In this document: in pieces, positions 1 through 2,121 of the stretch | Layout of the letters: each line of letters begins with the position of its first letter | Numbering within the stretch: the stretch's first letter is position 1 | Assembly (NCBI GenBank): GCA_903851235.1 | Contig: CAINNR010000032.1 | Span: 25-64,024 of the forward strand | Length of the DNA stretch: 64,000 bases | Source of the DNA: an uncultured Candidatus Berkelbacteria bacterium | GTDB taxonomy: Bacteria > Patescibacteriota > UBA1384 > XYA2-FULL-43-10 > CAINNR01 | Direction of reading: 5' to 3' | Program-made: the position numbers and the translations under genes | Notes under the pieces: generated by a model | Databases searched by the model: none | Told to the model about the DNA's origin: nothing | Seen by the model: only the letters and a program-made list of their open reading frames with translations

Positions 1-2121
1 AGCGGTTCCGCTTGCTCCCTCAGTTGTTCCACCGGAGCAGAATCCACCTATACAAAGCGGATTGTGAAAACAAAATGACCCAATGCAAATAGTTGGAGGA
101 ATCGGTTTACAACTGTCACCAGTGCAAGCTTTGCAATTATCACCGACACAAATTTTACAGATGTTTGGGTCAGTGCATTTGCAAGCTTCACCAATGCAAA
201 CACATTTATCGCCGGTGCATTGGCAAGCGTCTCCGACGCAAGGCTTGCAGGCATCACCAGAGCAAGGTTTGCAACTTTCACCGGTGCAAATTTGGCAACT
301 ATCCGGATTACTGCAAGCGCACTCCGGTCCGCTGCATTGGCATTTATCACCAGTGCAGGCGCAATCACTACCAATACAAACCGGTGAACAACTTGAGCCG
401 GTGCAAACCGGTGGTGTTGGCGGCGTTATCGGTGGGACAACCGGTGGTGTTGGCGGACAGGCTGAACAGCCCAAAGTACCACAATGATTCAAACAATATG
501 CTGGTGGAAAAACCCAGGCAACGGTCACCGTGGCTGAAACGCTTTTACCACAGGAACTGGCAGTTACGGTGTATATTCCGGGCAACGCCGGAGCAACAAA
601 CCTGGCAGTGTCATTACCATTATCAACAATCGTTCCACCAGAAGCCGACCAAGCAATTGTCGCATTTGTAATTCTTGTTCCGTCATTGGCGTACAATTTA
701 GCGGAAAAAGTTGTGCCGGAGTTTGGCGTTAGATAAATACTGGAGGGTGAAATTGTTAAATGATTGGCGCTGGCACAAACATCCGGTGGGGTTGGTGGAA
801 CAACCGGTGGGGTTGGTGGTGTGACCGGACATGCGGAACAACTGCCGCCACAGTCTACACCGGTCTCGCTACCATTTTGAATCCTATCAGAACAGGTTGG
901 AGGCGTTGGTGGACAAGCCGGACAACTTCCGCCACAATCAACACCGGTCTCAGAACCATTCTGGATCCCATCACTACAAGTTGGCGGCGTTGGTGGACAA
1001 GCCGGACAACTTCCGCCACAGTCAACACCGGTCTCAGAACCATTCTGGATCCCATCACTACAAGTTGGCGGCGTTGGTGGACAAGCCGGACAACTTCCGC
1101 CACAATCGACTCCAGTTTCATCTTGGTTTTGAATCCCGTCAGAACAGGTGGCAGGTGGAGAATTGTTTGTGGTGTAGTAAACTGTGTAACTGAGTATTGC
1201 GGGGCTTGCGATACCGTCAGCAGTGCTCAAAGTTGAACGCACTTGTAGATATCGATGGCTAGCATCAGCATTTAAACTACTCAAATCTAGTGCGGTACCG
1301 GAATAATCTTGCGGCCCAGTCCATGAAGACCAATTTGTATTTCCGTCGCCACTTCGAAACTCATAAGTGTTGGTGGTGTTGGCGTTACCACTGTTTTGGT
1401 TATGGTCTATTTCATATGGTGAAAAGTTGTCCCAAGAAGTCAGGTCTACAGTTCCATCAATTTGTGTTGGGGCAGAGACGTGGGTACCGATTGTGCCACC
1501 TGAAGCCTGAATTTCAAAAAGTTGATCCATATAATTATATGAATCACCAAAAACAGTGCCGGTAAATCTTAAATATCGTGCGTTAACTGCTGCAAAATCA
1601 AATGTCCACCAAGGAGGTGAGACAATACCAGATCCACCGGCTTGACCACGCTCTGTATAAACGACACCGTCTTCAGAAGTGTAATCATATAATTGTCCTG
1701 ATGTGACATTTATATAATTTTTTATTTCGCTTATTTGGAAGACCTGACCAAGGTCCATTGTCCATGTTATTGTTCCTGAATGAACTGGGCCAATGCCATA
1801 TGGTGTCGAGACGTCTCCATCAATTGCCAGTTCAGGGTTTGGCCAATCGCCAACAAGTCTTGAGGGGTCTTGTTGATATATCGACCATAGGTCAATGTGT
1901 GTGGCAACGGGATCAATTGTAATAGTTCCATTATTAGTTATCACGTCGCTTTTAGTACCTGCATCCCAATCGGCCTGAGTAGTAAGTGTCGTTGAGTTTG
2001 AGGCTGCTTTTATTTCTTTGTTTGGATTAATCCGATTGTATGAAACAAAATAAAAAAGTGCCAAAAAAACAACAACCACAAAAACTACCAACACGTTTTT
2101 TGAAAGTAAAGCCCTCTTCAT
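1..2121 (-). CDS. Secreted/cell-surface protein, 5'-partial (continues past the left edge). It has an N-terminal signal/TM segment, an F5/8 type C (discoidin)-like domain, four 28-aa CGGSCxxC repeats and a long Cys-rich tail.
   Basis: My own minus-strand translation from ATG at 2121 ([25 protein letters not shown]...) stays open to position 1 with no stops. The track misses it because it runs off the edge. The motif '...[11 protein letters not shown]...[17 protein letters not shown]...ARYLRFTGT' resembles discoidin domains. The unit [28 protein letters not shown] repeats four times, followed by a CxxC-rich tail. Confidence 0.75.
   Translation of the reverse strand, partial: [707 protein letters not shown]
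812..1147. repeat. Four tandem copies of an 84-bp coding repeat; the two central copies are near-identical.
   Basis: ccggacaacttccgccaca...ggatcccatcactacaagttggcggcgttggtggacaag recurs with an 84-nt period at ~896, 980 and 1064, with a diverged copy at ~812. It encodes the 28-aa repeat of the minus-strand protein. Confidence 0.8.

Follow-up and report, generated by a model that had tools for sequence, protein, structure and literature searches.

Little is known about how the ultra-small bacteria of the Candidate Phyla Radiation (CPR) recognise or hold cells or surfaces, and the candidate recognition proteins named so far are few. A 64,000-nucleotide stretch of DNA from an uncultured Candidatus Berkelbacteria bacterium (assembly GCA_903851235.1, contig CAINNR010000032.1, positions 25 to 64,024; hereafter the window) brings this question to a single locus, a minus-strand gene at the very start of the stretch. 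The original prediction, made from the letters alone, was of a large secreted discoidin-domain protein, likely to serve in host attachment and a candidate for phase variation by slippage among four 84-bp tandem repeats. What kind of protein is this, and what could changes in the repeats do to it? The window covers the 5' two thirds of the gene, whose product is a membrane-anchored surface protein, a concrete and conserved Berkelbacteria candidate with a lectin-type head, a long stalk, an unusual polytopic anchor, and a number of repeat modules that apparently differs between otherwise identical genomes. Taken alone, a repeat-bearing surface protein with a carbohydrate-binding domain is an expected kind of gene. 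The locus also flags a very common four-cysteine module, called CGGSC below after its core motif, which falls below every Pfam and NCBIfam cut-off and has neither a PDB sequence match nor a confident AlphaFold model.

The gene and its complete form

The coding sequence occupies positions 1..2121 of the minus strand, on which all features of the gene given below also lie. It is 5'-complete and 3'-truncated: translation from the ATG at 2121-2119 gives 707 sense codons without a stop, as originally noted for a frame that the list of open reading frames (ORFs) omits, and the frame then runs off the end of the window. Because the source contig is just 64,299 bp long, the gene is cut in the source record too. 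The protein encoded by the upstream neighbour, of 332 amino acids (aa), was looked up by exact sequence and matched seven contigs, one of which carries the complete gene (ENA ERZ27313089, contig k141_535049; L001 below). The gene at L001:1236-4424 encodes 1062 aa with three repeat units, and with four units it would give 1090 aa. The flanks in the window are 100% identical to L001. The missing 383 codons, which lie past the end of both window and contig, are taken from L001:3273-4424, where the frame runs on with neither stop nor frameshift; the remainder of the gene, which the original prediction had recommended looking for, is thus recovered. Exact-DNA and back-translated scans of a genome contig collection gave no match, nor did a back-translated scan of a metagenome contig collection with the head of the protein as query.

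A two-domain head behind an N-terminal helix

The protein begins with MKRALLSKN followed by a hydrophobic helix of 19 residues (aa 10-28; 2038..2094; Kyte-Doolittle maximum 2.87-3.34). This segment, correctly picked out as a signal or transmembrane element, has basic residues before it and would be a signal anchor, or else an uncleaved or late-cleaved signal peptide. A conserved KA|AS-like site lies ~12 residues beyond it.

The first domain of the head (aa 91-205; 1507..1851) carries the motif ARYLRF and is a discoidin or F5/8 type C (CBM32-like) domain. The Pfam comparison proposed at the outset bears out the assignment: F5_F8_type_C (PF00754) matches aa 91-189 of the 707-aa fragment with 30.1 bits, above its gathering cut-off of 28.2 bits, and the score is 35.7 bits for the head alone and 34.0 bits for the full-length protein. 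A profile built from 61 family members, 51 of which match PF00754, finds CBM32/discoidin structures in the PDB (4zz5, 2rva, 4a42 and 7d29; E 1e-12 to 1e-10) across profile positions ~73-205; the solved domains matched include chitosanase discoidin domains, the CBM32 domains of NagH/NagJ, and AlyQ. AlphaFold modeling of the 707-aa fragment used a 6-sequence alignment and reached a mean predicted local distance difference test (pLDDT) score of 50.5, so that it is usable only for the second head domain and an Ig-like domain described below; the discoidin part (aa 28-210) has a pLDDT of ~25 and its model is unusable.

The second head domain (aa 206-322; 1156..1506) is a predicted beta-sandwich of no named family. 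It is kept in all relatives, with the motifs THxSAxTQIDG and RYLQV, and is modeled as all-beta at a pLDDT of ~80; it has no match in Pfam and no sequence match in the PDB.

The head family is rare. When the head (aa 28-324) was run with HMMER against all 1.84 billion representative proteins, only 170 relatives came back at E<=0.001, of which 107 reach E<=1e-10. Among the 47 long relatives, 37 have the same C-terminal anchor, 16 have from one to six CGGSC modules, and five have the cysteine stalk, the module number ranging from 0 to 6 across the relatives. A search with the C-terminal anchor alone gave three proteins only, a count that is owed to the word index. At L006:3827-11808 (Logan SRR29243425) two tandem paralogues, one with a Kelch-propeller head (P0098, 1221 aa) and the other with a discoidin head (1372 aa), share the same anchor. 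On this evidence the family is a chassis in which an N-terminal helix, an exchangeable head and a variable stalk are combined with a conserved anchor.

About 106 of the 150 best head relatives (P0258-P0356) are only ~320-350 aa long, and most of the C-termini inspected among them end ...GYHTNKxPNKPTAQTAVIGx. They may be genuine proteins consisting of a head alone, or ORFs truncated at one conserved place, for example by a recoded stop codon.

The repeat array and the cysteine stalk

Behind the head lie four in-frame units of 84 bp (28 codons) at 817..1152, each encoding a four-cysteine module of the form (A/P)TCSDGIQN(QD/GS)...(P/S)ACP(P/V)TP. Unit 1 is at 1069-1152, unit 2 at 985-1068, unit 3 at 901-984 and unit 4 at 817-900. 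Tandem Repeats Finder gives the array a period of 84 and a score of 436, and it is the sole tandem repeat with a score of at least 80 in the 64-kb window. Two of the four DNA copies had been described as almost identical, and units 2 and 3 indeed differ at 2 of 84 bases (82/84 identical), both changes being synonymous. The remaining pairs differ at 19-26 of 84 bases, with 11-12 synonymous against 3-6 non-synonymous codons. Since these older pairs differ mostly at synonymous sites, purifying selection on the module is indicated, and units 2 and 3 are a recent duplicate. In unit 2, bases 1-46 are equal to those of unit 3 and bases 48-84 to those of unit 1. The array has a perfect identity of 83 nt at lag 84, the stretch from the end of unit 1 into the start of unit 2 recurring from the end of unit 2 into the start of unit 3. 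Apart from this array, the gene has tandem repeats only of period 21 and 24 nt, with two copies each and likewise in frame.

A proline-rich linker (aa 436-446; 784..816) connects the array to a bacterial Ig-like domain (aa 447-537; 511..783), which AlphaFold models at a pLDDT of ~87 (aa 450-535). Foldseek finds the Ig-like domains of SbsC, LigA and InvE (E 2e-5 to 5e-5, probability 1.0); its output is without query ranges, and the matches most plausibly belong to the modeled domain at aa 447-537. The Pfam model Invasin_D3 reaches 16.5 bits on this domain, below its cut-off of 33. A short four-cysteine segment and a second proline-rich linker, both recognised by reading the sequence, follow at aa 538-572 (406..510).

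The tail that was originally called CxxC-dense is a cysteine-dense stalk of aa 573-695 (37..405), recognised by its cysteine spacing. It has 30 cysteines in ~11 units of the form CxCxG(D/E)x or CxxCxG(D/E)x, and the spacing alternates between 5 and 2-3 residues. The terminal motif of the stalk (16 residues) also occurs in P0007, P0252 and P0110, and the AlphaFold pLDDT of the stalk is ~62. The isolated array and the isolated stalk gave only sub-threshold, composition-like matches in Pfam and NCBIfam at E up to 10, such as FeoB_associated at 21.8 bits against a cut-off of 27.

The C-terminal anchor and topology

The part of the gene recovered from L001 supplies the anchor. Past the last residues encoded in the window come a hydrophobic segment IPLLLSTLLWLVNPE, then KGKDKKRDG, and then a CarboxypepD_reg domain; further along are two paired hydrophobic helices, another CarboxypepD_reg domain, and a tail ending NHPNWNFPDSKTQS. 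Two stretches of the full-length protein (P0121) match CarboxypepD_reg (PF13620) with 50.8 bits against a cut-off of 32.3, and the relatives score 42-69 bits. With three more hydrophobic segments and a pair of CarboxypepD_reg domains at its C-terminus, the protein is tethered to the membrane and is not freely released. The description of a large extracytoplasmic protein with a discoidin domain, for which attachment is a reasonable role, holds, but calling it secreted is incomplete, and a soluble secreted protein is rejected given the C-terminal anchor.

Four hydrophobic segments are kept across the relatives, with stretches rich in lysine and arginine after segments 2 and 4. From the segment count and the positive-inside rule, aa 29 to ~710 would be extracellular and the two CarboxypepD_reg domains intracellular. 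The full-length protein has 48 cysteines, all of which precede the anchor, and none is found in the last 342 aa; relatives show the same division (before versus within the anchor, e.g. 67 vs 0, 40 vs 0 and 36 vs 0). Because all cysteines precede the anchor, the bias agrees with two separate compartments. Three points weigh against this topology: its sole grounds are hydropathy and the positive-inside rule, segment 2 is only weakly hydrophobic (~1.45 Kyte-Doolittle), and CarboxypepD_reg domains are more usual outside the cytoplasm.

Other modes of attachment were also considered. The full-length protein has no LPXTG, NPXTG or LPXTA motif, and the sorting domain Por_Secre_tail (PF18962), present in P0001 and P0005, is absent from P0121. 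Anchoring by a sortase or by the type IX secretion system (T9SS) is rejected, the sorting signals not being found.

Near the extreme C-terminus, a (H)PNW(x)(F/I/M) motif is found in L001:4300-4424 and in the closest anchor-bearing relatives (P0007, P0044, P0110, P0130, P0131, P0252, P0329 and P0339). This type of ending is missing from more distant relatives; it may be a cytoplasmic docking motif.

Three versus four units between assemblies

The original prediction expected the number of repeats to vary, and between assemblies it does. The array has four units (336 nt) in the window and three (252 nt) in L001 and in two further contigs (L002 and L003), the three contigs being drawn from two different sets of ENA assemblies. 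All three carry units 1, 3 and 4 exactly and lack unit 2 (985..1068), and beside the array they agree with the window without a mismatch, for 970 bp on the upstream side and for 753-815 bp on the downstream side. The unit structure offers a simple route between the two forms. A single recombination or slippage event within the 83-nt stretch of identity would delete exactly one 28-codon unit, keep the frame, and so convert the window's 4-unit allele into just the 3-unit allele that other samples have; the reverse change, from three to four units, would in addition require one base to change, to give unit 2 its C at position 47. Repeats of this length point to recombination or replication slippage between long direct repeats as the likely mechanism, and not to classical short-repeat slipped-strand mispairing.

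We infer that this difference in copy number is biological, and that the 3-unit and 4-unit alleles are probably both real. Several points count against that conclusion: the difference is known from assembled short-read contigs only, the 4-unit form is on one contig only, and assemblers with k<85 could yield a 3-unit contig from a pure 4-unit population. The competing explanation is an assembly artefact, in which all cells share one copy number and the assembler either skipped a loop or chained two variants of one unit. A comparison of k-mers defines how this could arise, since the 3-unit allele has k-mers that are private relative to the 4-unit allele only from k=85 (the 85-mer TTGTGGCGG...GGTGTTGAT), and a graph with smaller k therefore permits a shortcut that gives exactly the 3-unit sequence observed. 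The assembler and k values are not known for L002, L003 and the window contig, and contigs break in or near the array (two at aa 330 and one at aa 399), consistent with a difficult or mixed region. On the other side, the name of L001 (k141_) suggests a final k of 141, above 85, in which case its junction 85-mer should derive from reads. The 4-unit allele has private k-mers already from k=15, and its 47-nt signature ACTGTGGCGGAAGTTGTCCGGCTTGTCCACCAACGCCGCCAACTTGT runs from the tail of unit 2 into a head of the unit-2/3 type; a unit variant with C at 47 and G at 83, followed within 47 nt by a second such head, is hard to produce without reads of that kind. Even the artefact scenarios need two sequence variants of this unit, so that some heterogeneity remains. 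An artefact is an appreciable possibility but the less likely one. An exact look-up of constructed full-length proteins with 2, 4 and 5 units, and of the partial proteins, found no match, a result that is uninformative because the positive control (the 658-aa partial protein of L002/L003) was equally unmatched.

Phase variation in the ON/OFF sense, with the array as a contingency locus switched by slipped-strand mispairing, is not supported. It could draw on the two near-identical tandem units and on the varying copy number among contigs, but every gain or loss of an 84-nt unit stays in frame, and the 4-unit allele (707 codons in the window) and the 3-unit allele (1062 aa in L001) are both open. 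Neither the gene nor its upstream region showed a homopolymer or short repeat, and the repeats of period 21 and 24 are in frame as well, so that this explanation is effectively excluded and barely worth entertaining. Because 84 nt is 28 codons, gain or loss of a unit alters the length of the stalk and could not turn off production of the protein.

Just past the cysteine stalk, the ends of at least three independent contigs cluster: L002 and L003 both stop at window position 63, and the end of the source contig falls at position 1 of the window or no more than 299 bp past it, while L001 reads through. Strain variation or a drop in coverage could produce such a pattern.

A candidate surface lectin

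Read as a whole, the gene would encode a cell-surface, membrane-tethered lectin-type protein of Candidatus Berkelbacteria, in three parts. Outermost would be the two-domain head, with its discoidin/CBM32 domain and unnamed beta-sandwich. The stalk in the middle would consist of four-cysteine CGGSC modules on PPTPP linkers, one Ig-like domain, and a ladder of CxC and CxxC cysteines. Innermost would be the anchor of three hydrophobic segments and two CarboxypepD_reg (transthyretin-like) domains, the latter cytoplasmic by topology counting. The head would bind carbohydrate on another cell or on a polymer, making the protein an adhesin or receptor, and the CGGSC array would act as a length-variable spacer that holds the head off the membrane. 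Of this picture, the domain content, the full-length architecture, the taxonomy and the 3-versus-4 difference between assemblies are observed, whereas everything said of function is inferred. Surface exposure, sugar binding and an adhesin role are suggested by analogy, from the occurrence of CBM32/discoidin domains, Ig-like domains and proline-rich linkers in other surface proteins. On balance a membrane-tethered surface lectin, serving as a glycan-binding adhesin or receptor on a stalk of variable length, is the interpretation we favour, with some caution. Two considerations temper it: sugar binding is without experimental or structural support, the unusable discoidin model (pLDDT ~25) having kept the binding site from view, and attachment of Berkelbacteria to host cells is not established here.

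The protein might instead be no adhesin at all, being a structural component of the envelope or a transmembrane sensor that relays binding at the head to the cytoplasmic CarboxypepD_reg domains and PNW motif. The anchor is both elaborate and conserved (37 of 47 long relatives), with the PNW ending in the closest of them, which exceeds the needs of simple tethering. The Ig-like domain resembles domains of the S-layer protein SbsC, and the attachment of different heads (Kelch and discoidin) to one anchor is as seen in receptor families. However, no known signalling domain, be it a kinase, a cyclase, HAMP or the like, was found in the full-length protein. The data do not tell sensing and adhesion apart, and one protein could do both; a purely structural or sensory role seems unlikely, if well short of negligible.

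Three related readings go further. The protein may belong to an undescribed family of CPR transmembrane recognition proteins, with exchangeable lectin-type heads (discoidin, Kelch) on a disulfide- or metal-stabilised stalk of variable length. The conserved anchor, in which a membrane segment, CarboxypepD_reg, a membrane hairpin and CarboxypepD_reg again follow one another, with the PNW tail added in the nearest relatives, would relay contact with a host or glycan inward. The upstream neighbour, which resembles signal peptidase I (S26), may be a dedicated processing partner, and CGGSC may be an uncatalogued family of double-disulfide modules of CPR and Bacteroidota. These readings are speculative, and we consider them rather improbable.

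A secreted carbohydrate-active enzyme or protease with a CBM32 domain, like the CGGSC-bearing proteins of Bacteroidota, is very improbable and effectively excluded: CBM32 domains usually accompany glycoside hydrolases or lyases, as in the PDB matches, and the CGGSC module is found mostly in M43/reprolysin metalloproteases and other T9SS cargo, but neither a catalytic domain nor a T9SS sorting domain was found in the full-length protein, which has a polytopic membrane anchor instead.

The favoured interpretation, a tethered surface lectin, can be set beside known systems. The CBM32/discoidin domains of chitosanase (DD1/DD2), Clostridium perfringens NagH/NagJ and AlyQ are matched by the profile of the head family over the whole domain (E ~1e-12); in the window protein, however, the domain is not attached to an enzyme but would sit at the tip of a membrane-anchored stalk. 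Gram-positive surface proteins such as the alpha C protein and Rib of Streptococcus agalactiae, Aap/SasG and Esp have long, near-identical, in-frame repeats whose number varies between strains. With the alpha C/Rib type the window protein shares an N-terminal binding region, a stalk of tandem modules encoded in closely similar DNA units, and an apparent gain or loss of whole units in frame. It differs in that only two of its four units are near-identical and the change is of a single unit; its repeat is a 28-aa four-cysteine module and not an Ig-like Rib or G5-E repeat, its C-terminal anchor is polytopic and without LPXTG, and its host belongs to the CPR. In the myxobacterial protein TraA, a variable lectin-like (PA14-like) head is followed by cysteine-rich repeats and a MYXO-CTERM anchor. 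The resemblance is solely one of design, a variable head on a cysteine-rich stalk, and no sequence relationship was detected. TraA is described as a polymorphic surface receptor for cell-cell recognition (PMC3820747). A search of the available literature found nothing linking CPR bacteria with discoidin or CarboxypepD_reg (carboxypeptidase regulatory-like) domains. The window protein is of a known kind, the repeat-bearing surface proteins with lectin domains; what is unusual is the polytopic anchor with two CarboxypepD_reg domains, the rare head family, and the CPR host.

The CGGSC module in other proteins

A homologue search with the whole fragment returned 3788 matches, swamped by proteins that share only the CGGSC module. 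In the 120 proteins listed from these matches there are 732 distinct instances of the module, in arrays of up to 17 with a period of 24-28 aa, and neighbouring copies are often identical. The named sources among the listed matches are mostly Bacteroidota (Saprospiraceae, Lewinellaceae), and the listed proteins commonly join a T9SS sorting domain with M43, reprolysin-type or FN3 domains. These Bacteroidota T9SS cargo proteins (M43/reprolysin-type metalloproteases and FN3 proteins) carry CxDGxQNGxETGxDCGGxCxxC arrays whose modules are 60-85% identical in sequence to that of the window, together with catalytic domains and Por_Secre_tail, whereas the window protein has neither of the latter; the spacer module alone is shared.

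On the module, all Pfam and NCBIfam models stay below their cut-offs. NF033662 (acidic double-disulfide repeat) comes closest, with 17.9 bits where 41 are required (E 0.0019). It resembles the CGGSC module in forming short tandem repeats with four cysteines and acidic residues, but the module falls below its cut-off and is not a member. A profile of 42 module instances found 0 matches among PDB sequences at E up to 10, an AlphaFold model of four modules from a 24-row alignment is unusable (pLDDT 43), and a literature search on motif strings of the module gave nothing relevant. The unit is probably a small, two-disulfide spacer module that expands and contracts easily.

Genome context

The window encodes ordinary chromosomal genes, including those for DnaK, pyruvate phosphate dikinase, YebC, glycosyltransferases and five tRNAs. 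All named best matches of its DnaK are Candidatus Berkelbacteria, with up to 89% identity, which marks the window as CPR/Patescibacteria DNA.

Between the surface-protein gene and its upstream neighbour, a consensus scan finds two candidate control elements on the minus strand. A terminator-like hairpin at 2199..2218 (GGGCTCTC-ACGA-GAGAGCCC followed by a T-run, with an 8-bp stem) would end the upstream gene, and a promoter-like site lies at 2140..2168 (TTGATC, 17 nt, TATATT; 9/12 matches), a match that, coming from a consensus scan, is not evidence of function. The position of this site, between terminator and ATG, suggests that the surface-protein gene may have its own transcription start.

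The upstream neighbour (window 2225-3223, minus strand, 332 aa) has the signal-peptidase-I-like motifs GPSMQPTL and GDNTDHSMDS and a long C-terminal extension. Its match to Pfam S26 is weak (E 0.0098) and below the cut-off. Possibly it serves specifically to process the surface protein.

The order of a signal-peptidase-like gene, the surface-protein gene and a convergent gyrA recurs in Berkelbacteria Athens1014_28 (GCA_007376605.1, VMGN01000016.1; L005). The neighbour there, at L005:3459-4238, is a weak homologue of the 332-aa S26-like protein (E 8e-7) in the same position. The orthologue of the surface protein, at L005:4397-7829, is split between an ORF of 195 aa, which covers the head's N-terminal portion, and P0110 (942 aa). 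Either a frameshift or pseudogene, or else a sequencing error within the discoidin domain, would account for the split. In P0110 there is one CGGSC module only, and at another place, after an Ig/PKD-like domain.

Rfam places four of the tRNA genes in a cluster at 28975-29506 (Lys-CTT, Leu-TAA, Lys-TTT and Arg-TCT) and the fifth, tRNA-Asp, at 37338-37413; no other Rfam family reaches its gathering score within the window. On the plus strand are two large putative envelope or polysaccharide proteins, one of 1143 aa with heparinase II/III and polysaccharide deacetylase domains (53488-56919), and one of 844 aa with four Big_5 Ig-like domains and Peptidase_C39_2 (57982-60516).

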